NCBI GenBank assembly: GCA_965208325.1
Contig: OZ242326.1
Span: 3,264,001 to 3,328,000 of the forward strand
Source of the DNA: Candidatus Poribacteria bacterium
GTDB lineage: Bacteria > Poribacteria > WGA-4E > PCPOR2b
DNA: 64,000 nucleotides
Direction of reading: 5' to 3'
The notes beneath the pieces were generated by a model. The model did no database searches and was not told where the DNA came from. It was given only the letters and a program-made list of their open reading frames with translations. Every line of letters begins with the position of its first letter. Positions within the stretch are counted from its first letter, which is position 1. The position numbers and the translations under genes were made by a program. Of the stretch, positions 10,608 through 61,093 are shown piece by piece.

Positions 10608-10680
10608 GAGTAATGGGTAGTGAGTAATGAGTAATGCGTAATGCGTAATGAGTAAAGAAAAATGCGAAATGCGAAATGAG
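10608..10680. repeat. Heptamer tandem repeat (GAGTAAT/GCGTAAT), decaying
   Basis: Visible tandem units; same family at 47819-47940 and 59436-59524. Confidence 0.8.
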
Positions 10681-10968
10681 AAAAAGTGGTAAATCAGATT
10701 TTGACCGTCAAGGTTGGCTTTGAAGTCACATGGACAGAGAACGAATGCTAATAGCTTAAATCCGCTGCCTGCGCCGGAGATGGTGAGAAGGGGGATTCAA
10801 ACCGATAGGACAAAAATTTTAACATACAATAAGTGCATTTGTTGTCTTAGGATGATTCGCGGGAATCGTCCGGGTTAGCAGTATGCGTTAGGAAGGAAGG
10901 CGTTACTATACTGCAAATCTTTTTGGAAAACGACGCCCGTCAGAATTTATTGCTTCATCAAAGCGTGC

Positions 10969-42601: not shown

Positions 42602-43232
42602 TGTTTACTTACCCCCAATGTTTAGACAGTTATGCTTGTTGATTAAGATGCAATTGCTAGGCAATCCGGCTATGCTTCAACACCTAGGTTTTTTGAAAAT
42701 ACACCTCGTGAGGTGTTCTAGTGTTGAGCGACGTATGAAGCCGCTCCTCATTATAAAACTTGAAATTGTTGTTCAAGCCACACCAAGCCGTGTGAACCGA
42801 GTCATAAGCGTGTAGATAGACATGTTCATACTTGACGGTCCGCCAGAGACGCTCAATGAAAATGTTGTCAAACACGCTGCCGGTACCAGTCCAACTGATG
42901 CGTATGTTAGCCGATTCGTAAAGGCATCTGACGTGAACTGCGCGCCCTGGTCGCTATTGAATATCAAAGGCCGAGAAGAACTCAATGCCCGTTCCAGTGC
43001 CGATAGACAAAAGTAATCGTCTAGTGTATTTGACAATTCCCATGATAACACATATCGAGAGTACCAATCTATAATCGCCACTAGATACACAAAGCCGGTG
43101 TTCAAGCGGATATAGGTGATATCAGTTGCCCATACCTGGTCCGGTCGAGTGATAATTGAATCCTTCAGTAAATAAGCATACTTTTTCGACAGCCTGCCGT
43201 GCTTGGAGAGATTCGGCGTGGGAAAGATTGGG
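42602..43232 (-). pseudogene. IS3-family transposase 3' fragment with terminal IR, frameshifted
   Basis: 'WATDITY', 'NSDQGAQFTS', 'DNIFIERLWRTVKYE', 'YNEERLH'; IR-like end at 42602-42628; 5' half missing. Confidence 0.82.
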
Positions 43233-43251
43233 CTGATGTCTCGCTGCCGTT

Positions 43252-43364
43252 CTTTCAGTCCGCTTTTCATCGCGGTAGAGGTTGTTACGCGTGTAATGAG
43301 TAATACGTAATGCGTAATTTATTAGAGCTTTGAGTGCGCTTTTGATTGCAGTATAGCTAGTGTC
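43252..43364 (-). CRISPR. Detached mini-array: perfect repeat + 39-nt spacer + degenerate repeat
   Basis: Perfect repeat 43252-43288; 27/37-matching copy 43328-43364. Confidence 0.75.
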
Positions 43365-43466
43365 CGGCGGTGGAAAACTTTCTTGCCCACGAAGTCACAT
43401 TACTCTGAATGTGTAGTGATGTAGTAGAAACAAGACTATCGCCTTCGCTATCCGCTCAGTTGATCC

Positions 43467-46400
43467 CTTTTCATCGCGGTAGAGGTTGTTACACTGCCAA
43501 GGTGCAATACCCAACTCTCATTGCGGGCTTTCAGTCCGCTTTTCATCGCGGTAGAGGTTGTTACAGAACAGGAGACGGAACGGCGCAAACTCCGCAGAAT
43601 CGCCTTTCAGTCCGCTTTCCATCGCGGTAGAGGTTGTTACCTGTACCCAGAGAATGACGATGAGATCTACGTGCACTTTCAGTCCGCTTTTCATCGCGGT
43701 AGAGGTTGTTACTCAATCCCACGCTTGACTTTCTTCTCGATACTCTTAAACTTTCAGTCCGCTTTTCATCGCGGTAGAGGTTGTTACTTATCAATTCGAT
43801 TTGAATCTGCGGCGGTTTTCAACTTTCAGTCCGCTTTTCATCGCGGTAGAGGTTGTTACGCAAGCCAAGACAGAATAATCTAATAGCAAAGTATGAACTT
43901 TCAGTCCGCTTTTCATCGCGGTAGAGGTTGTTACTCCCTTTATCTCGGTGTGTCTGTAGACACTAAATTGCTTTCAGTCCGCTTTTCATCGCGGTAGAGG
44001 TTGTTACCCAATTCTGCGTTGGTTATCAGTTTTCTAAATAATCTTTCAGTCCGCTTTTCATCGCGGTAGAGGTTGTTACGTCAACACGAGGGCAGGCACA
44101 ACGCACCACCAGAACTTTCAGTCCGCTTTTCATCGCGGTAGAGGTTGTTACTCTTGTTGATAGCATCCTGTTCTAACCCGTAGGCGACTTTCAGTCCGCT
44201 TTTCATCGCGGTAGAGGTTGTTACTGACTTGAATGAACTGGACATGTATCCGGTTCTGCATTTCTTCTTTCAGTCCGCTTTTCATCGCGGTAGAGGTTGT
44301 TACAGACAGTAGTTGGGCGTTTGGGCAACTAGATAGCGTCGCTTTCAGTCCGCTTTTCATCGCGGTAGAGGTTGTTACTAGTAGCTGCAGATAGGGTAGG
44401 GAGACGATGGATACTTTCAGTCCGCTTTTCATCGCGGTAGAGGTTGTTACCCGCGAGATTTGGGAGTTCCGCGCGGAATAGGTGCGCTTTCAGTCCGCTT
44501 TTCATCGCGGTAGAGGTTGTTACTAATTGATAACTCAATCTTCAAGCCAGATATGCCAAGCTTTCAGTCCGCTTTTCATCGCGGTAGAGGTTGTTACCAA
44601 TTCGACAGGCTGCGAATGAAACATCAGATCCATCTTTCAGTCCGCTTTTCATCGCGGTAGAGGTTGTTACGAAGAATCTCATGCCGTGAACCCTGAAGAT
44701 ATTTTGCTTTCAGTCCGCTTTTCATCGCGGTAGAGGTTGTTACTTGAATTGCCGCTTGCAGAAAACGCATTTGTGTTTTTGCTTTCAGTCCGCTTTTCAT
44801 CGCGGTAGAGGTTGTTACATGCAATGTTTCACTTGTGACAAGTCGGGCGCGGGTCTTTCAGTCCGCTTTTCATCGCGGTAGAGGTTGTTACCTAATACTT
44901 GCGAACGGGCGAAACACACGGCGCAATGCTTTCAGTCCGCTTTTCATCGCGGTAGAGGTTGTTACTCCAATTTTAGTGTCAGTTTTAGGGATTCTTTATT
45001 CTCTTTCAGTCCGCTTTTCATCGCGGTAGAGGTTGTTACTCTTTCGTCTGTACGCCTCCCGTTAAAGTGAAAAACTTTCAGTCCGCTTTTCATCGCGGTA
45101 GAGGTTGTTACCCGATAGGGGCGGTGGCACAGGCAACTTGATTGAACTTTCAGTCCGCTTTTCATCGCGGTAGAGGTTGTTACAATTCGCACGGCTTGAT
45201 TGAAGTATTTAAGAAGTTGGACTTTCAGTCCGCTTTTCATCGCGGTAGAGGTTGTTACAAAGTGAGCACCTTTGGATTCAGCTCTTTCTATTATCTTTCA
45301 GTCCGCTTTTCATCGCGGTAGAGGTTGTTACTTCTAACGTCAACCCGGCGGCGAACACAATTCGATCTTTCAGTCCGCTTTTCATCGCGGTAGAGGTTGT
45401 TACCACTAATCAGGTCGCTGAATATGAAAGCCTTTACGATCTTTCAGTCCGCTTTTCATCGCGGTAGAGGTTGTTACTTGCTAGAGCTGTACGAGAACGA
45501 GCCCATCGAAGAGTCTTTCAGTCCGCTTTTCATCGCGGTAGAGGTTGTTACTATGAAGAACCCTAGTATCTCTATTACCACCTACGGTACTTTCAGTCCG
45601 CTTTTCATCGCGGTAGAGGTTGTTACCCAAGTAGAAAAGAGTTCAAGGCTAGACTTACGAATCTTTCAGTCCGCTTTTCATCGCGGTAGAGGTTGTTACT
45701 CGCGTTGCCCTGTGGCGTGTCAATACGCTTCAGTGGTATCTTTCAGTCCGCTTTTCATCGCGGTAGAGGTTGTTACCTTTGTCTTGAACCGTCGCCCCCG
45801 CCATGCCTGATTCGCTTTCAGTCCGCTTTTCATCGCGGTAGAGGTTGTTACGCAAACCTTTGTGACTTTGCAAAGGTTAAGAAAACGCTTTCAGTCCGCT
45901 TTTCATCGCGGTAGAGGTTGTTACCAGAAATGTTGACATTCATACGGGCGACACGATAAGCTTTCAGTCCGCTTTTCATCGCGGTAGAGGTTGTTACTCA
46001 AGATCTTCCGTGCTGTTAATGACGTTGTTTTTACTTTCAGTCCGCTTTTCATCGCGGTAGAGGTTGTTACCTACTTTCCCCCTAGCCGGCACAAGACATG
46101 CTTCACCTTTCAGTCCGCTTTTCATCGCGGTAGAGGTTGTTACACATCACCTATCGGTGTACGGGAATGTCCTAGAGTCTTTCAGTCCGCTTTTCATCGC
46201 GGTAGAGGTTGTTACACGGATTCACGGGCGAAAAATTTTCACTGCCTTGACTTTCAGTCCGCTTTTCATCGCGGTAGAGGTTGTTACTTTCTAACACGGA
46301 CCCGAAAAGTAACACGATTCGATCTTTCAGTCCGCTTTTCATCGCGGTAGAGGTTGTTACCACGGTTCATGCGCGGAGTCGAGCCGGTCGTTGCGCGTCT

Positions 46401-46506
46401 TTCAGTCCGCTTTTCATCGCGGTAGAGGTTGTTACTTGGACGCCGCCTCAAACACGTCGAGATCGAGCACTTTCAGTCCGCTTTTCATCGCGGTAGAGGT
46501 TGTTAC
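43467..46506 (-). CRISPR. CRISPR array, 41 full 37-bp repeats GTAACAACCTCTACCGCGATGAAAAGCGGACTGAAAG plus a truncated trailer repeat
   Basis: Repeats counted by eye from 43528 to 46506, with unique spacers of roughly 35-43 nt. The GAAAG 3' end and a leader toward cas4 imply minus-strand transcription. Confidence 0.97.
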
Positions 46507-46899
46507 CGACCTCGTGTAGTAAAGTAAAGATTGGACAAACACAGCAGCAATCCACGTTTGTAAGTTTTATCTCCTATCATGACGGATACACCTTGTTATG
46601 TCGATGGTTTAGTGTTAATGTGCGGCGATTTGAGTTACCGTCTATATTGAAGGCATTCTCGCTCGAATTTTCGCAAATCTACTGATTTCTAACGAATACC
46701 GGCATAACTCGTTTTACGCCGAGCTAGTCCGTCGAAAATCGGGCTAAAGTTGACCTAAATCCGCAATTCTAATCTCGTTTACGTGCGGCAACATTCCCAA
46801 AAAAAGCCTGTCAACCCGCGTTGTGTCTGGATTTTACCCAATAATAAATCTTTCGCAAATCGCCCCAATTATTCCGCAGAAAAACGATTTGCGAAACGC
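46507..46899 (-). promoter_or_regulatory. CRISPR leader
   Basis: Non-coding region between cas4 and the first repeat. Confidence 0.65.
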
Positions 46900-47472
46900 T
46901 CACAATACATCGGCGCAGAACCTGCGAAATTCACACTCAACGCATTTTCCGCGCTGCGGCGTCGGCGAAGGCATTCGCTCGTGTGATAACATAGCCCGTA
47001 TCTGAGCGATACTGTCGAGGGTTTTTCGCCGCAACGCGTCTGAAATCGGTACAGCTGTGATTCGCTTTGTAGGAAACCGATAGATGAAACCTTGGGATAC
47101 TGTTTGGCCGAGGCATTCCTCCACCATCATGGCATACGCAGTCAACTGATATTTGGCATTGAGATTCAGCCTCTGCCTTGTGGACTTAAACTCAACTGGA
47201 AATGCGCCTTCATTTGCCTCAATGAGCAGGTCAAGCACGCCAGTCAATCCGAGAGCGTCCGCGTTCAGTGTGACATGAAACTTGCGGCTTCCCGATTCCA
47301 ACCCATACCGAGAGAGAAGGCGGCGCCGCTCCAAGACACTGAGCACCTCGTGTTTAACCGCGCCGTGCTGCATCGGATGCGTGACAGGGCGGTGGACCGG
47401 CGTGAAGTAGGTGTGATAGACCACCCGCGGGCAGTAGAAGTATTGTTTGATGTCACTCACACGTATTTTCAT
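46900..47472 (-). CDS. cas4: CRISPR-associated exonuclease Cas4
   Basis: 'QYFYCPR', 'G.LDL', 'PVEFK', 'QL.AYA', 'KC.ECEFRRFC'. Confidence 0.93.
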   Translation of the reverse strand: MKIRVSDIKQYFYCPRVVYHTYFTPVHRPVTHPMQHGAVKHEVLSVLERRRLLSRYGLESGSRKFHVTLNADALGLTGVLDLLIEANEGAFPVEFKSTRQRLNLNAKYQLTAYAMMVEECLGQTVSQGFIYRFPTKRITAVPISDALRRKTLDSIAQIRAMLSHERMPSPTPQRGKCVECEFRRFCADVL

Positions 47473-47557
47473 TCTTGGTTCCTTATAAAATCGCGGTGCA
47501 AAAGAATAGGAGAAACCGAGTTTTGGGGAAAAAACTCGGTTTTTGCCGTTAGAATAT

Positions 47558-47809
47558 TCATTCTCCGAACTCTTCAATGACGGTTCGTTTGTCGTAATCT
47601 TTTGCACATACACTCATGACTTCGATTACTCCCTCTGCTTTGCCGAGTTGAACTGCCAGTTTTTCCTCCAATGCGCGCCGCCGTGTCGTGTTAATGTCGC
47701 CGCGGAACGCGCTGTATTGGATTCGGTGTAAGCCGTAATCGAGGCAAACATCGGCGATTTTTTTGCGGATACGGTCATTGACGATGTCGTAGATGACGTA
47801 GGTTTGCAT
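47558..47809 (-). CDS. cas2: CRISPR-associated Cas2
   Basis: 'YVIYDI..DRIR.KIAD.C.DYGL.RIQYSAF.G'. Confidence 0.95.
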   Translation of the reverse strand: MQTYVIYDIVNDRIRKKIADVCLDYGLHRIQYSAFRGDINTTRRRALEEKLAVQLGKAEGVIEVMSVCAKDYDKRTVIEEFGE

Positions 47810-47818
47810 GGGGAAGAC

Positions 47819-47940
47819 TAATGAGTAATGCGTAATGAGTAATGAGTAATGCGTAATGCGTAATGAGTAATGCGTAATGAGTAATGCGTAATGAGTAATG
47901 CGTAATGAGTAATGCGTAATGAGTAATACGTAATGCGTAA
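47819..47940. repeat. Heptamer tandem repeat (~17 x GAGTAAT/GCGTAAT) between cas1 and cas2
   Basis: Direct inspection. Confidence 0.9.
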
Positions 47941-47999
47941 AAGTGCGATGCGAGAAACAGAGTTTTGAAGAAAAAAACTCGGTTTCAAGAATTTGCCCA

Positions 48000-49100
48000 T
48001 TACCATGTGGCGATGAAGGGTTGATAGTCCCGTTCGCGGCGTAGGAACATTGCCAGGTGTCGGGCTTGGACTTGAATGATGTTGCAGAGTTTTTGTTCCT
48101 TACGCTCGAACCGCTCGGTTTCCTGTAATCGCCCTAACACACGGCCGGCAATTGCGCGGCGGGTTTCCCGGCTTAGTCGGCGCTGCGAGGGCGTATCTGC
48201 CGCCTCATTGGATGCTGAGGATTGGTGAGCGGCTTTTGCGGCTTCGCTGTCTGGCTCTTCCCACTCGACGTTGAATCTTTTGTTAATCATGGCGAACACA
48301 ACCCTATCCACGACGGACTGGCGGAACTCTTCGATAAAGTCTAACACTAACGACGGTTTGCCGGGACGGTCGACATGCAGGAACCCCGCAAACGGTTCGA
48401 GTCCGGCGAGTGACAGCGCGCTCCAGACTTGCGAGTAGAGCATCCCGTAGCCGTAGTTTAGCAGTGCGTTGACATCATCGACTGCGCCGCGATGGTTTCG
48501 GGTGGTGAAGCGTCCGGCGGGCAGTAGGCGTTGGACGCATTCCCAGTAGAGCGCGCCGGCGCGTCCTTCGAGATTAAGGAGCGTCGATCGCATCGCATCA
48601 ACCGGTGTGGTGGTATCGGCGGGCGTTTCCAGAGCGCTCAACTCCGACAGAATCGCCTCAATTTTTGCAATGCGTTCCATGAGTTCACCAAATTTTTTTG
48701 GTGCTTGTTTCTTGCGGTATTTTCCGAAATATCGGACGAGGTTTACTTGATTCTTCAGCTTGCCCGCTGCGAACCGTTTGGCAATCTCCAATCCGCGCTC
48801 GTCGTGGTAGGCGGCGAGTTGTTCGCGTCTTGAGATTACGGTGGCGGTAAGGGATGGGCTGTTGAGTTTCGCGTACGGTTTTCCGTTGAAGCTGAGGAAC
48901 GAGATTTCGATGCCGCGTTCGGTACACGCTTCAATCAGGTCTGAAGAGACACTGACCCCGCGCGAGGCGATAACAATCTGGTCGAGATCCATAAGAGCGT
49001 GTTCCTCTTTACCACGCTCCTTGTCTCGGTATCGGACACTGACACGCTCGGAGTGTTTGCCGAGATAGGTGCCGTAATCGGAGATAGTGAGTTGGTTCAT
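48000..49100 (-). CDS. cas1: CRISPR-associated endonuclease Cas1
   Basis: 'EGRAGALYW', 'NALLNYGY', 'GFLH', 'SLVLDFIEEFR..VDR'. Confidence 0.96.
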   Translation of the reverse strand: MNQLTISDYGTYLGKHSERVSVRYRDKERGKEEHALMDLDQIVIASRGVSVSSDLIEACTERGIEISFLSFNGKPYAKLNSPSLTATVISRREQLAAYHDERGLEIAKRFAAGKLKNQVNLVRYFGKYRKKQAPKKFGELMERIAKIEAILSELSALETPADTTTPVDAMRSTLLNLEGRAGALYWECVQRLLPAGRFTTRNHRGAVDDVNALLNYGYGMLYSQVWSALSLAGLEPFAGFLHVDRPGKPSLVLDFIEEFRQSVVDRVVFAMINKRFNVEWEEPDSEAAKAAHQSSASNEAADTPSQRRLSRETRRAIAGRVLGRLQETERFERKEQKLCNIIQVQARHLAMFLRRERDYQPFIATW

Positions 49101-50759: not shown

Positions 50760-53120
50760 TTAGTCAAACGTCAATCCCACCTCCGAGTCGTATGTGGCTT
50801 CAATTCGATGCGGTTCTTTCCGTTCCCTTGGAAGGATTCTATCGACACTTTTTAGGGCGTGATATCTCCTCCAGCTTATCGGGACTAACAGTTCTCCTGC
50901 GCGAATTGGCTCTTCTTCGCTCAGGGTTTTGTATTCATTATAGAGAGAAGCCGGTAGGACCTCAAGTCCATCAAACGCCCTGTAAAATGCCTCTTCAAGT
51001 CCCTCGTCGGCTGCAAAAGGACGCATTGGGCGTATGCACATTCTATCAAAGTTTGCGGCGGCGTTTTCGTATTTCTCCCGCCAGCGAATCTCGATCTCTC
51101 CGCTATAGATTTCATCTAACCAAGCGCCGATTGCGCCCTCATTAATTGGACGTTCGTTTTCGCGCTCAAGAATTGACAGGGTACGTTTCACCAATTCGGG
51201 ATCATAAATCTTTTGTCCATCGTGGGGTTGACGAAAGACGTGAACAGGCGCGAGGCCTTTCTGTAGTATACGGCGGTTGATACGACCAAAACGTTGTATT
51301 AGTGCCTCCAACGGTGCCGGTTCTGTGTAAATCGTATCCAAATCAATGTCCAGACTGACCTCGACCGCTTGTGTGGCAACGAGGACAATAGGTTGACGTT
51401 TCTCGCTCGTTGCTCCCGTCGCATCCCGAATGAGTTTTTCTTTTGCAGAGCGGTCTCGCATATTGAAACGACCATGTAAAAGTTCCGTTCGGATATTCAC
51501 CGCGTTCAACTGGTCACGAATCTGATTGTATGCCTCTTGTGCCTGATTAACAAGGTTGCACACGACCAACACCGATTTCCCTGCCTTCGCGTCATTAATC
51601 ACCTTTGTTAGATTGGAATCGTCTAATAACTCACCGTCGTGTAGTATGAGTTGATGGCGCTCGAATACTTGAAATAGATCGGGATTGGCTTCAATCGTAG
51701 TTGGCGAGTTTAGAGCTTTAGATAACCACTCTTGAATAAGCGTTGGGAAGGTCGCTGACATAACAAAGAAACGCGCATTGAAATTTACCCTAAGATATTC
51801 GATGGTCTTGAAGATCATCGCCAATCGCGTGACTTCGTAGGCGTGAATCTCGTCAAATATAAACGCCGCGTTATGATAATCGGTAAGCAACGCCTCGTAA
51901 CCCTTGAGGCGGTACATCCCTTTAAGCATTTGATACGGACTAAACACACGGACCGGCGGATAATTAAGCCGTGATAGATTGCGCGCCCATGTTGCGGTAC
52001 GAGCTGCTGTTTTTGTGCCATAACCTTTTTCTAACAGAAGACGGTAAAGCGCGAGGAGACTGCGTCCATGCTGTAAACCAACATATTCCTGTTTTGGAGA
52101 GTTTTTTTCTAAGCGACTTTGCATTGCGTTCATGCTGGCTTGATAGGGGAGTGTATAAAAAAGTCGTGGTAAGCTTCCAATAATTGATGACTGGTGTACG
52201 GCCCAGAACAGAGCGGCTTCAGTTTTCCCGCTACCGGTTGGTGCTACCAGTAGGGCTGAACCATCAACTTGTCCGGCTTGCGACTGATGTCTATGGAGGT
52301 TTTCTGGCAATAATTTATTCCTTGCTAAAATTGTGTCGATATCAAGTTGAACAGGCGGTGGTATTGGTCCAGTGTGTGCGGAGGCACTATGGTCCGCATT
52401 GATGATATAACCGCGAACGGTAATACCTAATACAACTGCATGGGTTACGTATCCATCTTCTAGATCTTCGTTGAACCTACAGTAATCTTCTAACCAGTAT
52501 TGGATTCTCTCAATACCGTGTTGTTGAACGGATTCGATTGCAATGTGCTGCGCTTGCAACGTTGGCATTGAGATGCCAAAACCACTTAATCCAAGTTCAT
52601 CCCGCCACGGGATACCGCATTTTGACAACCAACACCACAATCCACGCAAGATTGTCTCAGATAAAGAAATGTGTTGTGGATACGGGTATTTAGGAAAAAG
52701 ATAACTCTCTTGAATTTCCTTGAAATCTCGATGATGCGAGACAATACTGGCAACAAGCCACTGCTGCTCTTCCGTTGAAAGGTCGTCGGTCACCCAATCC
52801 ACAAATGCAAGCGAAAATACTTCGTGGCGATGTGACCATTTTTTCCCACCAGGACGCAGTTGGGTTTGAAAGCCTGGAACTGCCTTGCCAAAATCGTGAA
52901 GGAAGGCAGACCAGAAAAGGATGTGCCATAAGCGTGGCATATTGAGTTGGGTAGGAAGGTTAGGGCGTATTTGGATAAATTCTGCCAATCGTGATAACAC
53001 ATACCATGTGTGTTGAGCTAACGTTTCTGGATGACCGCCTTCACCCAATTCCGCGCTTTTTGCCCACACATTGTTTAACCAACCCGGATATGGGACGTTT
53101 TCAATTGAAGGTTGCATCAT
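50760..53120 (-). CDS. cas3: CRISPR-associated helicase/nuclease Cas3 (HD + SF2)
   Basis: 'LHDFGK', 'APTGSGKTE', 'DEIH', 'SAT', 'QRFGRINR'; start reset to MMQPS. Confidence 0.95.
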   Translation of the reverse strand: MMQPSIENVPYPGWLNNVWAKSAELGEGGHPETLAQHTWYVLSRLAEFIQIRPNLPTQLNMPRLWHILFWSAFLHDFGKAVPGFQTQLRPGGKKWSHRHEVFSLAFVDWVTDDLSTEEQQWLVASIVSHHRDFKEIQESYLFPKYPYPQHISLSETILRGLWCWLSKCGIPWRDELGLSGFGISMPTLQAQHIAIESVQQHGIERIQYWLEDYCRFNEDLEDGYVTHAVVLGITVRGYIINADHSASAHTGPIPPPVQLDIDTILARNKLLPENLHRHQSQAGQVDGSALLVAPTGSGKTEAALFWAVHQSSIIGSLPRLFYTLPYQASMNAMQSRLEKNSPKQEYVGLQHGRSLLALYRLLLEKGYGTKTAARTATWARNLSRLNYPPVRVFSPYQMLKGMYRLKGYEALLTDYHNAAFIFDEIHAYEVTRLAMIFKTIEYLRVNFNARFFVMSATFPTLIQEWLSKALNSPTTIEANPDLFQVFERHQLILHDGELLDDSNLTKVINDAKAGKSVLVVCNLVNQAQEAYNQIRDQLNAVNIRTELLHGRFNMRDRSAKEKLIRDATGATSEKRQPIVLVATQAVEVSLDIDLDTIYTEPAPLEALIQRFGRINRRILQKGLAPVHVFRQPHDGQKIYDPELVKRTLSILERENERPINEGAIGAWLDEIYSGEIEIRWREKYENAAANFDRMCIRPMRPFAADEGLEEAFYRAFDGLEVLPASLYNEYKTLSEEEPIRAGELLVPISWRRYHALKSVDRILPRERKEPHRIEATYDSEVGLTFD

Positions 53121-53826
53121 TACCTCCCACAAAGCTATGAAAAGCCAATCCGAGATAGTTGCCTTGATATTCAGGTGTTGATGGGTCGATCCAATATTTG
53201 CCCTTCTCATTTGAAAGGGAAACTCGGTCGGTGAGTACCGTGTACTGCGAAAAGGTTGGATGGCGGTTTTGACTGTAATCCAAATAGCGAGGCATAAGAA
53301 CTGATACACCGCGCCCAATTCGGGGTCCCATCTCATGCGGCATAATCGTGTGTTCAAAGTAGGCAGCCTCGTTCTGCTGCAATTCAACAACGTTGATTGC
53401 TGTGTAGGTGAACAGGTCTTGCGATCTGCCCAACGTAACTGCATAGCGTGGACTTCGGAACGCCGCTTCCCACTCTGGGCGGTTGATATAGAGCGTGAGA
53501 CGAGGTTGAAAGAGCAATTCCCTTTCAAAGGGATTTACATTGCCCTCAAGTACATTTGGGATTTGAGTCCCCGGCAGCTTGCTACGACTGGAGTTAGGCG
53601 GTGCCAATACAATGATATGCTCAAGATCCCGGACATGTCCTTGATGGGTGAAATGGTAAGCAAATTGAACTCCATTTGAATCGAACCAATCCCCCAATGC
53701 GCTACAGATATGCCCATAAATGGTTGCGGGTGGCGGCATCTGAAAGCTGGGGTGAATTTGTAGCATAAAGTGAGGATAGCGGAAGGAAGTGGTAAGTCCT
53801 TCCGCAACGATTTTGAGGACTTTCAT
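53101..53826 (-). CDS. cas5: Cas5 (type I-B Tneap/DevS-like)
   Basis: 'SFRYP', 'PPPATIYG', 'LGRSQDL'. Confidence 0.9.
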   Translation of the reverse strand: MKVLKIVAEGLTTSFRYPHFMLQIHPSFQMPPPATIYGHICSALGDWFDSNGVQFAYHFTHQGHVRDLEHIIVLAPPNSSRSKLPGTQIPNVLEGNVNPFERELLFQPRLTLYINRPEWEAAFRSPRYAVTLGRSQDLFTYTAINVVELQQNEAAYFEHTIMPHEMGPRIGRGVSVLMPRYLDYSQNRHPTFSQYTVLTDRVSLSNEKGKYWIDPSTPEYQGNYLGLAFHSFVGGNDATFN

Positions 53827-53892
53827 AGAGACCTCCCAAATCAAAGATGAGAAACCGAGTTTTGAAGAAAAAACTCGGTTTCTTCTCCGTTG

Positions 53893-54999
53893 TCAATCCA
53901 ACCAATTGGCATTTTCCGATTTTTGCAAATCTTCGATTAAAGCCTTAAAGGCGTCTCGTGGATGATTCACTCTAATGTTTGCCTCACAATTTGCCAAACG
54001 GGAGGAATCACTTAATGCTTTCTCAAATTTATCTCGTTCATCGTCGAGATAACCCTTGGTCCAACCGACATAAACATCCGAGAGAATATCATCCTTGAAG
54101 ACCTCCAGTGCTTCAGCAAGCGCGCCATCCTTCAGTTCCGGTCCATCCCGTCGGTTTGGGCCAATGACGTGACCGAAAATGTGATTGCCACCTTTGGTCA
54201 CAGCTAGAATTGTCAGTGCCGGACTCACATCTGTATAATGCAGCGACTGCTTTGCGCCCCCTTCGAGGTGGGCTAGTCCGTCCAAAAGCGTGCTGATGCG
54301 CTGAACGCGCGCCTCGTATGGAAGTCGATAAGATTTTTCAACGTCTAGGTGCTCAAGGTTCTGAGCTTTCGCTAATTCTGTCCTCACGTTGTCAAGGTTT
54401 CGATAACCCGTTTTGTTCCGGTAGGAGAATGTCCCTGCCGCGTGTAAATCAAGTGAAAAGAGTCCTTTGAGAGTTGCGCGGTAGAATTGACTGCTGTATG
54501 GTACAGTATCTCCTTCTATGCGACTCATTGATTCCCAGTCTTCCACAATCCTAACAGGTGCGACAGACACTAGAGTGCTGACTCGGAACGGAGATACTCG
54601 AGTAATTCCCTGTTCTTTTTTCTCCTTGATGTCAAGTGGTGTTAGTTCTTGGTATTCCGGATCTTCTTGTCGTGCCTTTTGAGCTGTTGCATCATTTTTG
54701 GGGGCTCGCATGTAGCCAAAAAGATCGTCATCCCACCACTCAATTGGGTTGGCATCAGTATAAGCGATCTTCCCTTCACGATAAATGGGTGCCTCTTTCC
54801 ACTCAGAATCCATTTTTTCGAGCGTTGTGCGGTGCCAATAGCGGAATGCCTGTGCAGAGACATAAGGAAATACCTTTCCACCTGAACTAATGGCTTTTAC
54901 CGCGACCTTGTTATCGTATAATTCGTCTGGTATGTTGCCCTTGTTGTTAAGTGCTGAAGCAGGAGCATCAATTAGTAACAGACCAGTTATGAAAGACAT
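53893..54999 (-). CDS. cas7: Cas7 (Cst2/DevR-like, type I-B)
   Basis: 'DAPASALNN', 'PYVSAQAFRYW', 'DDDLFGYMRA', 'TRVSPF', 'GGAKQ..HYTDV.P'. Confidence 0.9.
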   Translation of the reverse strand: MSFITGLLLIDAPASALNNKGNIPDELYDNKVAVKAISSGGKVFPYVSAQAFRYWHRTTLEKMDSEWKEAPIYREGKIAYTDANPIEWWDDDLFGYMRAPKNDATAQKARQEDPEYQELTPLDIKEKKEQGITRVSPFRVSTLVSVAPVRIVEDWESMSRIEGDTVPYSSQFYRATLKGLFSLDLHAAGTFSYRNKTGYRNLDNVRTELAKAQNLEHLDVEKSYRLPYEARVQRISTLLDGLAHLEGGAKQSLHYTDVSPALTILAVTKGGNHIFGHVIGPNRRDGPELKDGALAEALEVFKDDILSDVYVGWTKGYLDDERDKFEKALSDSSRLANCEANIRVNHPRDAFKALIEDLQKSENANWLD

Positions 55000-55035
55000 A
55001 AACTAACCTCCTTAGATTTGTGTGAGATTGGCCTT

Positions 55036-56535
55036 TCACTCTGATTGACCATCTTCTTCTTCAATATCGATCTCTATATCTACATCGGCATTCTTATCAA
55101 ACCAACCTAGTTTGTGTAACCGTTCAATCATTCGCAGGAATACTAAATCACGTGTGAGTCGCCAATTCAGGTGGGAATCATTCTCGGCGTGTTCAAAAAC
55201 CTCAATGTAAGGATCGAACTCAATAATTGGAGAATTACCGCTCTTTATTTGGCGATAGTTTGCTCGAAGTAGAGCCGTACGAAATACACCGTAATTTATG
55301 TGCCGAAAATTCGTAAACAGATGATGATCGTCTTGCTTACTGATGTGTTCAGCCAAGCGATCTCCCATCTTACGAATTTCCTCAATCCGTCCTTCTTCCA
55401 TATTAAATACCTCCCTTAAAAAAGATGAAGTGATGTTCCATGAAACCAAATCCATCTCATGTGTTAATCCGTAGTCCCCCCGTGGATCACCTTTTTCGGC
55501 GCGGGCGTAACGGAACGGACGACGCAAAAAGTAGGTGCGTAAAAATCTCTTTGCTCTATCTGGTCGCAGAAACAATCCATCATATAGTCTCAGGATTTCT
55601 TCATAAAGCCAATTGCGATGCGAATGGAATGGTTTATCCTCCTTTTTCTTTCGTTTCTTCTGCGGTTCAGTTTCCCACGCCCGATTGACAATTTGGCTCC
55701 ATTGTGTACGGTAAACTGGGCTCTCCATTTCGCGCAGAAATCCGATAATTTGGAGCGGTAGGTGATAGATATCCAAACCGACCCCCTGCCCGCTGTTCGT
55801 TAGATGATATGCCGTGATTGAGAAGTGCTCCTCATCATGAGATTTCTTCCGTTGTCTAATATCTGCCCGACAAAGCGTGTTGATTAGCAGTGTACCGCGA
55901 GAGTGATGGGGTTCGTCCATTTTCTTGCTGCCCGCTTCTTGGGCAAGGGTAATGGCTCTCAGGTTTCCTTCTAGAAATGTCCGGGCAAAATGCAGCATAA
56001 GGCTCGGGTTGTCCGAATGCACCGCAAGCAATCGCCCACCAGACTTTGCACAACCAAGCGGAAACGCTTGAATAGCAAGCAGTGCTTCGCCTGAAACAGG
56101 CAAGCCAGCATCACCATAGGTGTGGAAATTGATAACATTCTCGCCGGTAAGCAATGGAATGTGTTGCCGAAAAGCACGTCCTTGTGGAAGATTCTCTTTC
56201 TCTCCAAACGCTACATCAACAGCAGGTTTGCCTGTGAAAACACACACTTCATCATCAAGTAACGGCGTATCAGCCCTGTAGTTGCGAAGCACACGCTCCG
56301 CATACCTCTTCCGTTTTTCTGGCCTCCTAATGTATGCTGGCTGCGTAAAGCCTGAGTTTGGAAAAGCAACTGTTAAAAACGACTTGAGCGGATCTTGGAC
56401 ATACTCAAGAGCGATATAGTCCGCAACATCGTCTAGATCTGCTTCGGTTAGTTCTTCAGGTCTTCGCTTGTGGGCAAAGGCGGTAATTGTCGCAATTCCC
56501 ACATCAACAAGTGGATGCCCTGTGTATTTGAGCAT
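55036..56535 (-). CDS. cas8b1: Cas8b1/Cst1 large subunit (type I-B)
   Basis: 'YTGHPLVDVG', 'RQHIPLLTG....NF', 'W.LTRDL...RMIE.L'; position between cas6 and cas7. Confidence 0.8.
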   Translation of the reverse strand: MLKYTGHPLVDVGIATITAFAHKRRPEELTEADLDDVADYIALEYVQDPLKSFLTVAFPNSGFTQPAYIRRPEKRKRYAERVLRNYRADTPLLDDEVCVFTGKPAVDVAFGEKENLPQGRAFRQHIPLLTGENVINFHTYGDAGLPVSGEALLAIQAFPLGCAKSGGRLLAVHSDNPSLMLHFARTFLEGNLRAITLAQEAGSKKMDEPHHSRGTLLINTLCRADIRQRKKSHDEEHFSITAYHLTNSGQGVGLDIYHLPLQIIGFLREMESPVYRTQWSQIVNRAWETEPQKKRKKKEDKPFHSHRNWLYEEILRLYDGLFLRPDRAKRFLRTYFLRRPFRYARAEKGDPRGDYGLTHEMDLVSWNITSSFLREVFNMEEGRIEEIRKMGDRLAEHISKQDDHHLFTNFRHINYGVFRTALLRANYRQIKSGNSPIIEFDPYIEVFEHAENDSHLNWRLTRDLVFLRMIERLHKLGWFDKNADVDIEIDIEEEDGQSE

Positions 56536-56536
56536 T

Positions 56537-57511
56537 CTATTTTATCCTCCCTTCTTTAGCAACGGAGTTTCTGTGGTGGATCTCATACTTCCCCAACCCA
56601 AACGTCGCATTTTTGCCGACATGCAGAAATTTGCCCAACGCTACAAACGGCAGGAATGCCTCTAAATCGCCAGTGTAGGTTACATTGCCGACTAAACCGC
56701 CGAGTTGCATCTTCTGATTCTGGCGTGAGGAGTAGCGCGTCCAGTCCTTCCATCGTAAACTGCTGTCAACGGTCTCGACCGTCTCTGCCTGTGCGATGAG
56801 TCCTTTAAAGTCGAGCTCCAGTGATTCGCCGCAGTGGAAATATGCCAACGCGGAGATGCGGCCAATCAGGCGCCGCCAGAAGAGGTGGAAAGGGAGTTTA
56901 TCGGTCAACTGTCCACCGTGCGTGATGCGCGTGGGGTTGAGCAAGTGGAAGGTCAACCGGTCGTTCGGTAGGGATGCGGTGTTGTCCCGAATCTCGCCAA
57001 AACTGAGTGTGTTATTTCGATTGTGGACCATCTGGGTTTCGCTGTCGTAGATACATTCACCGTCATCGCTCAGGACTCGGGTCAACTGGAAACGTCCGCG
57101 TCCCTTGCCGATTCCGATCTCGCCCAGCTCGCGGAAGCTGGCGATGAAATAGGGGAGGTAGTCAATGGCACGGCCGATGAGCGTGAGTTGGAACGAGAAC
57201 GATTCGCCTACCCGGTATTCGCCGCGTGTATCCAACGGATCAATGACAAACGGTCTCGGCACGTCGCCATAAGTTCGCAACTGCTGCGCCCCTTCAAACG
57301 GCGCCGTCTCAAAGATGTACGGGTATGGGCAGGCGACCTTTAGTACACAATCTCGGCAGTCGATCGGTCCTTGGGTGCAAACCATTTTTCGGAATGCATG
57401 ACCGAATCCGCCGCGGAGCGTCGAGCCAGCGTAGGGCGGCATCACAATGGGTGATCGTACGGTTAGAATTACACGGTATCGCGCGAGTCTGAAATTTTGA
57501 AGTAGATTCAT
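56537..57511 (-). CDS. cas6: crRNA-processing endoribonuclease Cas6
   Basis: 'GSTLRGGFG', 'PRPFVI', 'GIGKGRG', G-loop 'HVGKNATFGLG'. Confidence 0.92.
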   Translation of the reverse strand: MNLLQNFRLARYRVILTVRSPIVMPPYAGSTLRGGFGHAFRKMVCTQGPIDCRDCVLKVACPYPYIFETAPFEGAQQLRTYGDVPRPFVIDPLDTRGEYRVGESFSFQLTLIGRAIDYLPYFIASFRELGEIGIGKGRGRFQLTRVLSDDGECIYDSETQMVHNRNNTLSFGEIRDNTASLPNDRLTFHLLNPTRITHGGQLTDKLPFHLFWRRLIGRISALAYFHCGESLELDFKGLIAQAETVETVDSSLRWKDWTRYSSRQNQKMQLGGLVGNVTYTGDLEAFLPFVALGKFLHVGKNATFGLGKYEIHHRNSVAKEGRIK

Positions 57512-57532
57512 TGGTGAGCTCCAGATTTTTTT

Positions 57533-57549
57533 GTCCGCTTTTCATCGCG
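57533..57549 (-). repeat. Solitary CRISPR-repeat core in cas6 5' UTR
   Basis: 17-nt exact match GTCCGCTTTTCATCGCG to the array repeat, ~21 nt upstream of the cas6 ATG. Confidence 0.8.
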
Positions 57550-57580
57550 TGATTGGGTAGGTCTTTGAAACCGGAATCTC

Positions 57581-57717
57581 AGAAACCAAGTTTTGAAGAA
57601 AAAACTTGGTTTAAAGCTAAGTCGAGTTTTGAAGAAAAAAACTCGGTTTCAATGGCTGAAGCAACGGAGTTTTGAAGAAAAAACTTGGTTTCAAGATAGA
57701 AGAAAAAACTCGGTTTT
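57581..57717. repeat. Cluster of AAACCGAGTTTT-GAAGAA-AAAACTCGGTTT palindromes (REP-like)
   Basis: 3-4 copies here; further copies at 16006, 47513, 47954, 50322, 50641-50738, 53850 and 58319. Confidence 0.85.
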
Positions 57718-57736
57718 GACTTGGCTTCGAGGGATT

Positions 57737-58303
57737 TTAATCGAACATCATATGCTCGATTAACTCTCTGTCGGTCTCGGAATATGCGAGGACAAATTTT
57801 GCATATGCTTGGCGCGAGGGAAACTGGGAAAGTACAATTTGAGGCTTGGCTAATGTGCCGTTGCGCAAACCAACGTAGTCCTTATAGCTTGAAAATGTCC
57901 AGTTCGCTGGGTTATCCGTTAACCCCGCGAACACCGGATTCAGGTGAATATAGCGCGAAAGATGCAGTAAATACTCGATTTTGTCGATTAACTTTGCCTT
58001 AAAGGCACCTTGAAAAATTGGTCCCACACGGCTCTGTTGCCGGTTCACCGCTTTGGTGTATGATACTGTGAATGGTTGCATGATTTTAGTGCTAAGGTTG
58101 TCATCGTTTAGGTAAACCAGAATGTGGTAATGATTCGGCATGAGACAATAAGCAACAATGTCAATCAATTCAGGGCGGCAGTAGCGGCGAAGGCGTTTTA
58201 TAAAATACTCCCAGTTTTCCTCGTTGAAGAAAATCGGTTCACGATTTACGCCGCGGTTGTATAGGTGGTAATAGTGTCCGGCTTTGAATTGTAGGTTGCG
58301 CAT
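57737..58303 (-). CDS. REP-associated tyrosine transposase (RAYT, Y1_Tnp HUH nuclease)
   Basis: 'YHLYNRG', 'AYCLMPNHYH' (HUH), 'G.IFQ..FK', 'YIHLNPV.AG', 'W.FSSY'; flanked by palindromes. Confidence 0.9.
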   Translation of the reverse strand: MRNLQFKAGHYYHLYNRGVNREPIFFNEENWEYFIKRLRRYCRPELIDIVAYCLMPNHYHILVYLNDDNLSTKIMQPFTVSYTKAVNRQQSRVGPIFQGAFKAKLIDKIEYLLHLSRYIHLNPVFAGLTDNPANWTFSSYKDYVGLRNGTLAKPQIVLSQFPSRQAYAKFVLAYSETDRELIEHMMFD

Positions 58304-58388
58304 TTGTAGTTTTTTAAGAAACCGAGTTTTGAAGAAAAAACTCGGTTTATAAGGATTATATCATGCCAGAGTGCAATATATTCGCACT

Positions 58389-59360
58389 TTACTTTTTGGC
58401 GTAAATTTTTTTCATTTTTTCGGCTTCGTCGTGGATTTCACGGCGGAGGCTTTCGGGTTCGAGGACTTCCGCATGCGATCCGTAGCCCATGACCCAGCGT
58501 TTTACTTCGCCTATCCCACCGACTCTCAGTCGCAGTATCAGTTCGCCCGACGGTAATTCCTCAATTTGTTGGCTGGAATGCCATTGACGTTCTCTTATCC
58601 AGCGCGCCTGATATTCGTCAAATCTGACCGCGACATCAGTTAGCGATGGGGAGCGTTCGGCGAGAAACCCACTGGCTAAGTATGCATCTAACGAAAAGCC
58701 GGGATTGACTTTGAACGTCGAGGTTAGGGGTTTATGCGCATTGATGCGGCTGGCGAGAAAGTCGCGAGGTTCACGCCGCATGTGGCAGTAGGCGATAAGA
58801 TACCAATCGCCGCGGATGTTATGGAGGTGATACGGGTCGACGGTACGCGTGCTCGTTTTGCCGCTGCTCGCAGAAAAGTATTCCATTTCAACCGAACGCT
58901 TTGTGCGGATGGCTTCATTGAAATCTATGAGCAGTTCCGGTTTGACCTTTGCAGTGCTGCCGCCTGAGAATGTAAACGCAGAAGTTTCTTTTTGTGCGTC
59001 GTAGCTTACGTGCGCCGGCAGATGTTGTTTAATCTTATCGAGTGCGAGTTTTAGAGGGGTTTCAAAGGGCGTGCCTAGATAACGCTTGAATAGTTCTTCA
59101 CCTAGGAATAGCGCTGTAATTTCTTCACGTGTCAGCATTATTGCGGGAAGGGAATAGGTGGGATCCGTGTAGTACCAGCCGTTATTGGATGCGTCGCGTT
59201 TGATTGGCGCGCCAAGGCGATTTATCATAAATTTTCTATCTTCGTAGGCGATTCGGGTGCTGCGGAGTTCGAAGCGTTCCTTGACGGTGTGGGCGTTTGG
59301 ATACTTGTTTGCGCGGATTTGCTCGTCTATCCAGTAAATTCTTTCCAGCTTTGTGGACAT
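58389..59360 (-). CDS. HTH-WYL transcriptional regulator
   Basis: N-terminal wHTH, 'RTVDPYHL....WYLIAYC..R...R.F..SRI', WCX 'WVMGYG..AEVLEP..LR'. Confidence 0.92.
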   Translation of the reverse strand: MSTKLERIYWIDEQIRANKYPNAHTVKERFELRSTRIAYEDRKFMINRLGAPIKRDASNNGWYYTDPTYSLPAIMLTREEITALFLGEELFKRYLGTPFETPLKLALDKIKQHLPAHVSYDAQKETSAFTFSGGSTAKVKPELLIDFNEAIRTKRSVEMEYFSASSGKTSTRTVDPYHLHNIRGDWYLIAYCHMRREPRDFLASRINAHKPLTSTFKVNPGFSLDAYLASGFLAERSPSLTDVAVRFDEYQARWIRERQWHSSQQIEELPSGELILRLRVGGIGEVKRWVMGYGSHAEVLEPESLRREIHDEAEKMKKIYAKK

Positions 59361-59435
59361 ACGGCGTTGTCTCCTTTCAGAATAAGGTATTCGGTTGAAT
59401 ATTATACCTTGCGCGTTGGGTATTGGGAGGCAAAA

Positions 59436-59524
59436 TGAGTAAAAAGTAAAAAGTAATGAGTAATGCGTAATGAGTGATGAGTAATAGGTAATGAGTAATG
59501 AGTAATAGGTAATACGTAATGAGT
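59436..59524. repeat. Heptamer tandem repeat upstream of the WYL gene
   Basis: GAGTAAT/GCGTAAT/AGGTAAT units. Confidence 0.85.
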
Positions 59525-60570: not shown

Positions 60571-60643
60571 ATGGGACTAGACGATCTCATCCTTTGTAGT
60601 TATTTGGGTTCATATTGTGATAAGCAAGCTTCTCCCACAAGCA

Positions 60644-60860
60644 AATCGAGGCTAGGAAGCCTCTCCCACAAGGGAATCGAGGTTGGGAAGCCTCTCCTAC
60701 AGGCTAATGGAGGCTAGGAAGCCTCTCCTACAGGTTAATCGAGGCTAGGAAGCCTCTCCCACAAGCCAATCCAGGCTGGGAATCCTCTCCTACAGGCTAA
60801 TCGAGGTTAGGAAACCTTTCCCACAAGGCAATCGAGGTTGGGAAGGCTTTCCCACAATAT
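60644..60860. repeat. Tandem array of seven 31-bp REP-like units
   Basis: AATCGAGGCTAGGAAGCCTCTCC(C/T)ACAxxxx with an exact 31-bp period. Confidence 0.9.
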
Positions 60861-61093
60861 AATCGAGTTAGCACGGTGCGAATGGGAGTTCGGTTTATGA
60901 CATTCAATTGCGGACCAATTTTTTGCTTGCAAAATCCTAACCGGGTATGATAATATTTAGACAGACCGCGAGGAAACTTTCCCTACGGGGAAAAACATCG
61001 CGGTTGTTTTTTTGTGGGTTGCGCTTTGACACCTTGGTTTGATTATTGAGAAGTGTAATTGCTTCAGCGAGACAATCTTTTTAGTACGCCGTT

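Follow-up and report, generated by a model that had tools for sequence, protein, structure and literature searches.

A single degenerate CRISPR repeat lies in the 5' leader of cas6 in a Candidatus Poribacteria bacterium, within the 64,000-nt stretch of its genome analyzed here (GenBank assembly GCA_965208325.1, contig OZ242326.1, forward-strand positions 3,264,001 to 3,328,000; hereafter the window). By sequence comparison, this orphan pseudo-repeat (psiR2, CCCAATCA-CGCGATGAAAAGCGGAC-AA, 57531..57557, minus strand) is homologous to the psiR2 of intact mini-arrays (psiR1, pseudo-spacer, psiR2) in related genomes, and the design of these mini-arrays is that of the published CreR/CreA systems. 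We put the probability at roughly 0.5 that the window element is an orphaned psiR2 that has been kept in the cas leader as a Cas6 processing site. With somewhat less confidence, we propose that this single site, which would have no guide function, has been selected as a cis element by which Cas6 matures, and so gates or insulates, the mRNA for itself and for Cascade.

Across the site the minus strand reads cacGCGATGAAAAGCGGACaaaaaaatctGGAGctcaccaATG. A 17-nt core (CGCGATGAAAAGCGGAC, 57549 to 57533) matches the array repeat GTAACAACCTCTACCGCGATGAAAAGCGGACTGAAAG exactly and ends 21 nt before the cas6 ATG (57511-57509), with the Shine-Dalgarno sequence GGAG at 57522-57519. The initial annotation, made from the sequence of the window, had reported such an exact core just 5' of the cas6 ribosome-binding site, about 11 kb from the array and in the sense orientation of the cas operon leader, and this placement is correct: the first array repeat (46506-46470) is on the same strand, about 11.0 kb downstream. 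With two mismatches or fewer allowed, 43 sites in the window match the 17-mer (the 41 array repeats, an isolated full repeat at 43252-43288, and the leader site) against a shuffle expectation of 0.01 per window, and the leader site is the sole non-array copy in the whole genome of 4,707,648 bases, which is a single contig. Beyond these sites, no second pseudo-repeat was found in the window, either at that mismatch level or with a less strict hairpin pattern; a loose scan for the hairpin across the whole genome returned 15 other matches, none of which combines the loop of the repeat with GGAC. The leader site is not a degenerate terminal repeat, as it lies 11 kb from the array, without a neighboring repeat, and eight cas genes (cas6, cas8b, cas7, cas5, cas3, cas1, cas2, and cas4) are located in between. 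Four aligned runs over the site are contig sets with a flat, DNA-like depth and contigs continuous through the site, and have no bearing on expression.

The features expected of a Cas6 substrate are retained to different degrees. In the window psiR2, C57549-G57548-C57547 can pair with G57538-C57537-G57536 around the loop GATGAAAA (57546-57539), and the predicted Cas6 cleavage position (57534..57535, minus strand), placed by analogy with the 8-nt 5'-handle ACTGAAAG of the array repeat, follows GCGG, between G57535 and A57534. The stem-loop and cut site had been described as kept, which holds for the loop and the GCGG|AC junction, both identical to the repeat, but only in part for the stem: the 4-bp CCGC/GCGG of the repeat is reduced to a 3-bp CGC/GCG, extended via a bulged A in the ViennaRNA fold, and the free energy of the hairpin is -4.6 kcal/mol, vs. 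-7.0 kcal/mol for the true repeat. The remainder of the repeat is lost, as had also been stated. Only 17 of the 37 nt match, and the handle has become ACAAAAAA, retaining AC..AAA. alone. This is degeneration of the psiR2 type, with CGCGATGAAAAGCGG|AC retained at 17 of 17 positions and the 5'-handle nucleotides lost; in the published systems, psiR1 is described as keeping the 5'-handle nucleotides and psiR2 the 3'-handle part (Liu et al., 2023, 10.1101/2023.03.10.532045; Cheng et al., 2021, PMC8501985). A cut at the predicted position would leave a short leader (ACAAAAAAATCTGGAGCTCACCA, 57509..57533, minus strand) of 23 nt counted from 57534. An upstream open reading frame (ORF) starting at an ATG in the hairpin loop was considered and ruled out, since the loop contains no ATG in three relatives (G017, G006, and G048).

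To examine conservation, we searched 101 related genomes with Cas6, which gave 24 close homologs of full length, all at least 69% identical, and a single fragment cut off by a contig end; these relatives are Candidatus Poribacteria metagenome-assembled genomes. Four of the 24 were set aside, namely this genome's second copy and those of the three same-genus genomes. These four share an upstream sequence that differs from that of the operon loci, and no array (by array finder) or cas neighbor (by tblastn with the window Cas proteins) was found in the 20 kb on each side of them, or on the downstream side in the case of this genome's copy. The latter (G000:C1:761141-762109; L088 17445-18401, minus strand) is 70% identical to the window Cas6 and sits among housekeeping genes (E2 acyltransferase, MtnA, and a TolB-like protein), and the three same-genus genomes contain the orphan-type cas6 only, with a conserved promoter-like upstream sequence, TTGACAATTAT....

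The other 20 cas6 genes head operons. Thirteen of them, spanning four genera (g1, g4, g5, and g11), have the element 15-28 nt before the ATG, twelve in a well-preserved form and one (G033) degenerate; in one further locus (G042) it is split by an insertion, and six loci are without it. Among the 13 loci, the core has a mean pairwise identity of 91% (95% when G033 is left out), vs. 41% and 57% for the upstream and downstream flanks, respectively, and 52% on average at fourfold-degenerate sites of the adjacent cas6 genes (39-58% between the window and each other locus). In each of the 12 well-preserved copies, 20-24 nt separate the predicted cut from the ATG. Judging from these alignments, the leader element is under strong purifying selection in the relatives and is not the chance relic, absent from related loci, that the initial annotation had allowed for. 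Further, psiR2 accompanies cas6 whether the downstream cassette is type I-B or a different type I.

Outside this clade, we compared the local repeats of more distant Cas6 relatives (34-42% identity, with a repeat family ending ...CCCGCTCGAAGGGAATTGAAAC) with the 300 nt upstream of their cas6, and the best match was at most 13 nt with mismatches. A metagenome scan with the 19-mer CGCGATGAAAAGCGGACAA gave 62 loci, none with a Cas6 match by tblastn, and most of these represent one conserved sequence without an adjoining cas6. Two extra pattern matches, in G017 at 4.33 Mb and in G134, have no cas genes within the surrounding 1.5 kb.

The origin of the element is indicated by six relatives (G021, G022, G048, G005, G053, and G057) in which it is the second unit of a two-repeat mini-array. 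These mini-arrays are located before cas6 in G021, G022, and G048, before the effector genes of the same locus in G053 and G057, and elsewhere in the genome in G005. All six share the psiR2 5' flank CAATCAT.TCC.ATG(A), their psiR1 has an array-type hairpin and a near-canonical handle (ACTGAAAG/A/T), and the pseudo-spacer between the two pseudo-repeats is 40-51 nt long. In five of the six, the first 15 nt of the pseudo-spacer match an opposite-strand site immediately downstream of a sigma-70-type promoter (TTGACA, TTGAAA, or TGGACA, a 17-nt spacing, and TACAAT, TATAAT, or TATTAT), which belongs to the gene preceding the mini-array. In G022 and G048 this gene encodes a sigma-70 region 2/4 protein, in G005 its product was judged sigma-like by eye, and in G053 and G057 it is a 148-aa ORF. 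Most of the mismatches occur at positions 6 and 12, three cases also have one at position 9 or 15, and at position 8 G022 differs from G048 in the pseudo-spacer and the target alike. The target flank is CCT in four cases and CCC in one. As 652 spacers from 17 arrays gave no usable protospacer in this genome or the related loci from which a protospacer-adjacent motif (PAM) could be derived, the CCY flank is based on the five mini-array targets only. For the remaining mini-array, that of G021, no pseudo-spacer target was found in the available locus DNA. The initial annotation had suggested Cas6 autoregulation; a device that evolved for this purpose is not supported, and the element is better explained as the psiR2 of a CreR-type mini-array that is still intact in these six relatives.

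Comparison with the local arrays, which were found for 11 of the 13 element-bearing loci, indicates that the leader copies have been maintained separately from them. The initial annotation proposed, as a check, that leader cores should covary with the repeats of their own loci, and this test fails: the stem is CCCC/GGGG in nine of the 11 arrays while the leader element retains CGC/GCG, and GCGG-type arrays occur only in the window and G033. Likewise, some of the nine CCCC...GGGG arrays have the loop variants GATTAAAA, GATGAATA, or GATTAAGA, and the leader elements keep GATGAAAA or variants of their own. The 17/17 identity in the window is thus partly a coincidence of the repeat variant that its array happens to carry; the element is conserved independently and is no copy of the array repeat. 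The positions that are conserved, in the loop and at the GCGG|AC junction, are common to all repeat variants of the clade. Homologous, functional-looking mini-arrays have CCGC/GCGG stems in G053 and CCCC/GGGG stems in G057, amounting to one compensatory change. Given that mini-arrays have either stem and that psiR2 stems differ from those of the same-genome array, the Cas6 of this clade probably accepts CCGC/GCGG and CCCC/GGGG stems alike.

In the window, only the second half of the mini-array is left. The psiR1 is unrecognizable in ten of the 13 element-bearing loci, including the window, and these guide-less loci have at least three upstream architectures: a WYL promoter with repetitive extragenic palindromic (REP) elements, a second promoter type with REP elements, and, in G006, a TTGACA promoter fused into the former pseudo-spacer. 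Nine of the ten nevertheless have 0-2 changes in the core, G033 being the exception with one inserted base and two substitutions. The two repeats flanking a pseudo-spacer that characterize CreR/CreA genes are present in the six relatives described above, and a PAM-flanked, promoter-proximal target in five of them; the window has neither. There is no psiR1 and no handle-like octamer upstream of the window element, and when the 70 nt preceding psiR2 were searched for 14-nt seed matches within 1.5 kb on either side, with positions 6 and 12 left unconstrained, only REP self-matches were returned. No pseudo-spacer and target pair, again apart from REP self-matches, was found in the window or the nine other guide-less loci, G033 included. 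The upstream palindromes were considered as a CreR seed and target and ruled out, because AAACCGAGTTTT..AAAACTCGGTTT is a dispersed REP-like element that gives only REP-vs.-REP seed matches in the window. Since the published one-repeat creA keeps the other half, psiR1, the window element does not appear to be a working CreR/CreA guide.

We propose the following scenario. A CreR/CreA-type mini-CRISPR would be ancestral to this cas6 clade, the element being its distal, 3'-handle-forming pseudo-repeat. In the window, the proximal pseudo-repeat and the pseudo-spacer would have been lost to insertions of REP elements and of a REP-associated tyrosine transposase (RAYT) gene, so that no guide RNA would be made, and psiR2 would remain in the 5' untranslated region (UTR) of the cas6-cas8b-cas7-cas5-cas3 operon. 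Transcription through the site may start at a WYL-side promoter or at a weak promoter consensus match at 57747-57774, a possible alternative source. Cas6 would then recognize the element and cut after GCGG (57535|57534), freeing the cas6-cas3 mRNA, with a constant leader of about 23 nt that contains the Shine-Dalgarno sequence, from a variable upstream RNA composed of RAYT and REP hairpins. The initial annotation had suggested that such a cut would part the cas mRNA from the upstream transcript, and RAYT does lie between the WYL-side promoter and the site. Maturation of the cas-operon mRNA would thereby become dependent on Cas6, with insulation or stabilization as a possible outcome. The element is read as a retained Cas6 processing site on the grounds of its retained loop and junction, its linkage to cas6, the constant 20-24 nt spacing, and the tolerance of either stem.

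Several observations weigh against this scenario. The hairpin is weak, with three G-C pairs and -4.6 kcal/mol, and it is missing from the minimum-energy fold of the 121-nt leader. Among 15 psiR2 copies there is only one compensatory pair, and a covariation score as high as that observed also arises in 62 of 500 shuffles. The element is absent before cas6 in six of the 20 related operons, and is therefore not essential for cas6 expression. The related genomes are not independent, so that counts of loci overstate independence, for which the comparison with flanks and fourfold-degenerate sites within the same loci is the control. Finally, conservation indicates some function and does not name Cas6 as the partner.

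One alternative, which we consider unlikely, is negative autoregulation, in which free Cas6 binds the hairpin 8-10 nt upstream of the Shine-Dalgarno sequence and, with or without cutting, lowers translation or stability of the operon mRNA, and in which abundant pre-crRNA would titrate Cas6 and relieve the repression. It draws on the same conservation and sequence evidence as a Cas6 processing site, as well as on the closeness of the hairpin to the ribosome-binding site, and the published CreR circuits, which are described as sensing crRNA load, offer an analogous logic (10.1101/2023.03.10.532045). However, a cut would separate the hairpin, along with any bound Cas6, from the cas6 mRNA and leave it on the upstream fragment, which means that steric repression requires binding without cleavage; moreover, the direction of the effect is not indicated by the sequence, and full-text literature searches found no natural precedent.

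Equally doubtful in our view is that the element is a neutral relic of a decayed mini-array or an old array with no present function. Its partner pseudo-repeat and pseudo-spacer are gone from the window, six of the 20 related operons do without it, the G033 copy is degenerate, and in G042 the element was split by an insertion without loss of the locus, all of which a relic would explain. A relic would not, however, be expected to show 91% core identity across 13 loci next to flanks at 41-57% and fourfold-degenerate sites at 52%, or to persist in at least three upstream architectures that lack psiR1. Upkeep by conversion from the arrays is excluded as a cause of this conservation because nine of the 11 arrays have a different stem.

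It is less probable still that the element acts at the DNA level or binds another protein, for example as an operator for the WYL regulator encoded nearby, with only a historical resemblance to the repeat. Conservation alone does not identify the ligand, and the surroundings include a WYL regulator gene as well as a conserved palindromic promoter. On the other hand, psiR2 is kept where the upstream gene is of the sigma-70 family and not WYL (G022 and G048), and also in G021, where neither a WYL homolog nor the WYL-side promoter turned up immediately upstream. A GTGC-N9-GCAC palindrome at the promoter, 800 nt away from the element in the window, is the likely WYL operator, and conservation within the element falls exactly on the loop and 3' flank, the parts that do not vary among the CRISPR repeats of the clade.

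Least probable of all is that psiR2 is still part of a guide gene, with an unrecognized 5' end (either a start of transcription or, in the REP region, a strongly degenerate psiR1) giving a CreR-like RNA that steers Cascade to a promoter, as the homologous element is so used in relatives and the REP loop upstream of psiR2 in G015 holds CCCGATGAAT...GGGG, resembling that genome's own repeat variant, but the window has no 8-nt handle-like sequence upstream and only REP self-matches to the seed, the REP palindrome occurs genome-wide, and one-repeat creA genes, as far as PMC8501985 describes them, retain psiR1 and not psiR2.

Both mini-arrays and elements resembling a repeat have already been described upstream of cas6 in I-B loci (PMC10120712). 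Shmakov et al. (2023) reported that repeat-like sequences are enriched near cas6 in I-B (27%) and that I-B mini-arrays upstream of cas6 target a site between themselves and cas6 (PMC10120712). The window element has the same subtype and the same position, but it is not one of their solitary repeat units, which are described as (nearly) identical to the array repeat and as missing the downstream repeat (PMC10120712): in the window the exact match covers 17 of the 37 nt, it is the upstream repeat that is absent, and the sequence of the element is not tied to that of the local array repeat, its stem being different in nine of the 11 relatives with a known array. The solitary repeat units of phages, known as Racr anti-CRISPRs, likewise have a single repeat-like hairpin that could bind Cas6; these are viral and inhibit the host system (PMC10651486), unlike the window element, which is chromosomal, has a fixed place in the cas operon, and is vertically conserved.

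The CreR and two-psiR CreA genes, as presented in the sources cited above (10.1101/2023.03.10.532045; PMC8501985), resemble the window element in being repeat-derived, located in a cas intergenic region, devoid of a leader, and marked by psiR2-type degeneration, and the kinship is strengthened by the six relatives with complete mini-arrays, five of them with a pseudo-spacer matching a PAM-flanked site beside the operon promoter. Unlike these genes, the window has psiR2 only, with no psiR1, pseudo-spacer, or target, and so cannot make a Cascade guide, and its element lies inside the 5' UTR directly before the cas6 Shine-Dalgarno sequence. The one-psiR creA of Haloarcula hispanica is also the single surviving pseudo-repeat of a former mini-CRISPR in a I-B cas locus; it keeps psiR1 with the 5' handle and, according to that description, still guides Cascade, while the window keeps the opposite half (PMC8501985). 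A further non-crRNA that is tied to the Cas machinery and encoded next to a type I-B cas cluster is s479 of Haloferax volcanii, a CRISPR-like small RNA encoded between the CRISPR locus and the cas genes (PMC8155600), which according to the introduction of PMC10120712 represses non-cas genes; it acts in trans, unlike the window element, which is located in cis in a cas mRNA leader. Full-text literature searches, which did not extend to the supplementary locus tables of PMC10120712, found no psiR2-only element selected in a cas leader, and no natural case of a guide-independent role for a Cas6 site in a cas mRNA was found in such searches either.

Regulatory mini-CRISPRs of the CreA/CreR type are a recent discovery, and all described cases work through a guide that steers Cascade to a promoter. 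Synthetic Csy4 (Cas6f) hairpins serve as insulators in engineered 5' UTRs, where a cut site just upstream of the ribosome-binding site ensures that the leader is short and constant, whatever precedes it. The arrangement in the window would have the same effect, with the difference that the Csy4 cases are engineered. If retention as a Cas6 processing site is the correct reading, cas expression would be tied to Cas6 activity at the RNA level by a guide-independent feedback link, and the element would be a natural counterpart of the Csy4 insulator, a ready-made RNA insulator. If this half is not functional alone, the case still documents the decay of a circuit and the remodeling of cas leaders by REP elements and RAYT. 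The clade holds both states, complete CreR-like circuits, some coupled to genes of the sigma-70 family, and the Cas6-processing half alone under purifying selection, and it extends CreR-type circuits to the phylum of Candidatus Poribacteria.

The locus itself is a type I-B system, with NCBIfam matches above cutoff for Cas8b1/Cst1, Cas7/Cst2, Cas5b, the Cas3 core and HD domain, Cas1, Cas2, and Cas4, together with the array. On the minus strand, the order is the WYL/WCX regulator gene, RAYT, cas6-cas8b-cas7-cas5-cas3, cas1-cas2-cas4, the array leader, and the array. The cas6 gene (56537..57511) encodes 324 aa (PF10040 CRISPR_Cas6, E 6.6e-17), and its orthologs in relatives are 76-86% identical. 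The effector genes (50760..56535; NCBIfam TIGR01908, TIGR02585, TIGR01895, and TIGR01587/TIGR01596) are cas8b (55036-56535), cas7 (53893-54999), cas5 (53101-53844), and cas3 (about 50760-53528), the last with an ORF start that overlaps cas5, so that its true start is probably later. These are followed by the adaptation genes (46900..49100), assigned by family matches, with cas1 at 48000-49100, cas2 at 47558-47809, and cas4 at 46900-47613, then by the array leader (46507-46899) and, from the repeat search, the array of 41 repeats (43528..46506), all on the same strand. In eight relatives' loci (L044, L043, L045, L046, L050-L052, and L054), the same Cas6 and Cas1/Cas2/Cas4 set (76-88% identity) accompanies a different type I effector cassette, composed of an 805-aa Cas3 (helicase first, HD last), a 601-aa protein without a family match, a Csa2/DevR-type Cas7, and a 236-aa protein. 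Its occurrence in place of the I-B cas8b-cas7-cas5-cas3 genes suggests an effector-module swap.

Upstream of the leader site, a 323-aa WYL/WCX-domain regulator is encoded at 58389..59360 on the minus strand (PF13280, E 2.1e-20; PF25583, E 6.5e-23). Directly after its stop codon is a promoter-like element (58355..58387, minus strand), whose promoter activity is predicted from its sequence and which consists of the palindrome GTGCGAATATATTGCAC (58371-58387) and TATAAT (58355-58360). The same layout follows the end of the WYL gene in G017, G015, G010, G014, G036, G053, and G042, and the palindrome GTGCG.ATATA.TGCAC, 10 nt before TATAAT, is found directly after the WYL gene in L011, L012, L014, L017, L022, L024, and L025 as well as in the window. 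This conserved pair is likely the WYL operator and the cas promoter. Several relatives without RAYT have this layout before cas6, and RAYT and the REP elements therefore look inserted into the cas leader of the window.

The RAYT gene (57737..58303, minus strand; 188 aa) is located between the conserved cas promoter and psiR2, and its product matches PF01797 (E 1.6e-9) and, at 74.4 bits, NF047646, below the cutoff of 80. Between RAYT and psiR2, at 57583..57717, are about 3.5 palindromic REP-like elements (AAACCRAGTTTT-TTCTTC-AAAACTYGGTTT), which take the place held in relatives by psiR1 and the pseudo-spacer, and a further REP copy at 58319-58348 follows the promoter-like element. The palindrome is dispersed: this genome has 78 copies, and five relatives have 46-198. 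No Rfam family reached its gathering score in the window, and two weak sub-threshold matches within 57400-58450 both fall on the REP cluster. In G015 (L012), about 60-40 nt upstream of the pseudo-repeat, a REP loop is expanded by about 41 nt; the insert contains the repeat-like sequence mentioned above, which matches the repeat variant of that genome (loop GATGAATA) and may be a vestige of psiR1, and G014 has a shorter related insert. A RAYT homolog 72-84% identical to that of the window sits between cas1 and cas2 in eight of 20 relatives' loci (L040, L042, L045-L049, and L054), a set that includes nine of the 13 element-bearing operon loci; in the window RAYT sits between the cas promoter and cas6 instead, and the association of the REP transposase with this CRISPR-Cas clade is recurrent.

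The far end of the array is broken by insertions. At 43466-43490 (minus strand), a repeat is cut after GATGAAAAG by an insert starting GGATCAACTGAGCGGATAGCGAAGGCGATAGT. The same insert end, present in six copies in this genome, also splits the cas6-leader pseudo-repeat of G042 (L025, about 1388-1480) at nearly the same position, and the insert may be a mobile element that targets the repeat hairpin. About 240 nt past the array, the isolated full repeat at 43252-43288 (minus strand) abuts a fragment of an IS3-family transposase (rve domain, 42773-43270), whose listed ORF begins at an ATG within the repeat loop. Elsewhere in the window, a tandem array at 60626-60867 consists of 7.8 copies of the 31-nt unit AAGCCTCTCCCACAAGCTAATCGAGGCTAGG, with the inverted repeat AGCCTC...GAGGCT; heptamer tandem repeats of the TAATGAG/TAATGCG type occur at 10608-10684, 47819-47940 (between cas1 and cas2), and 59434-59524; and a 165-nt tandem unit is present twice at 1-329, with 84% matches.

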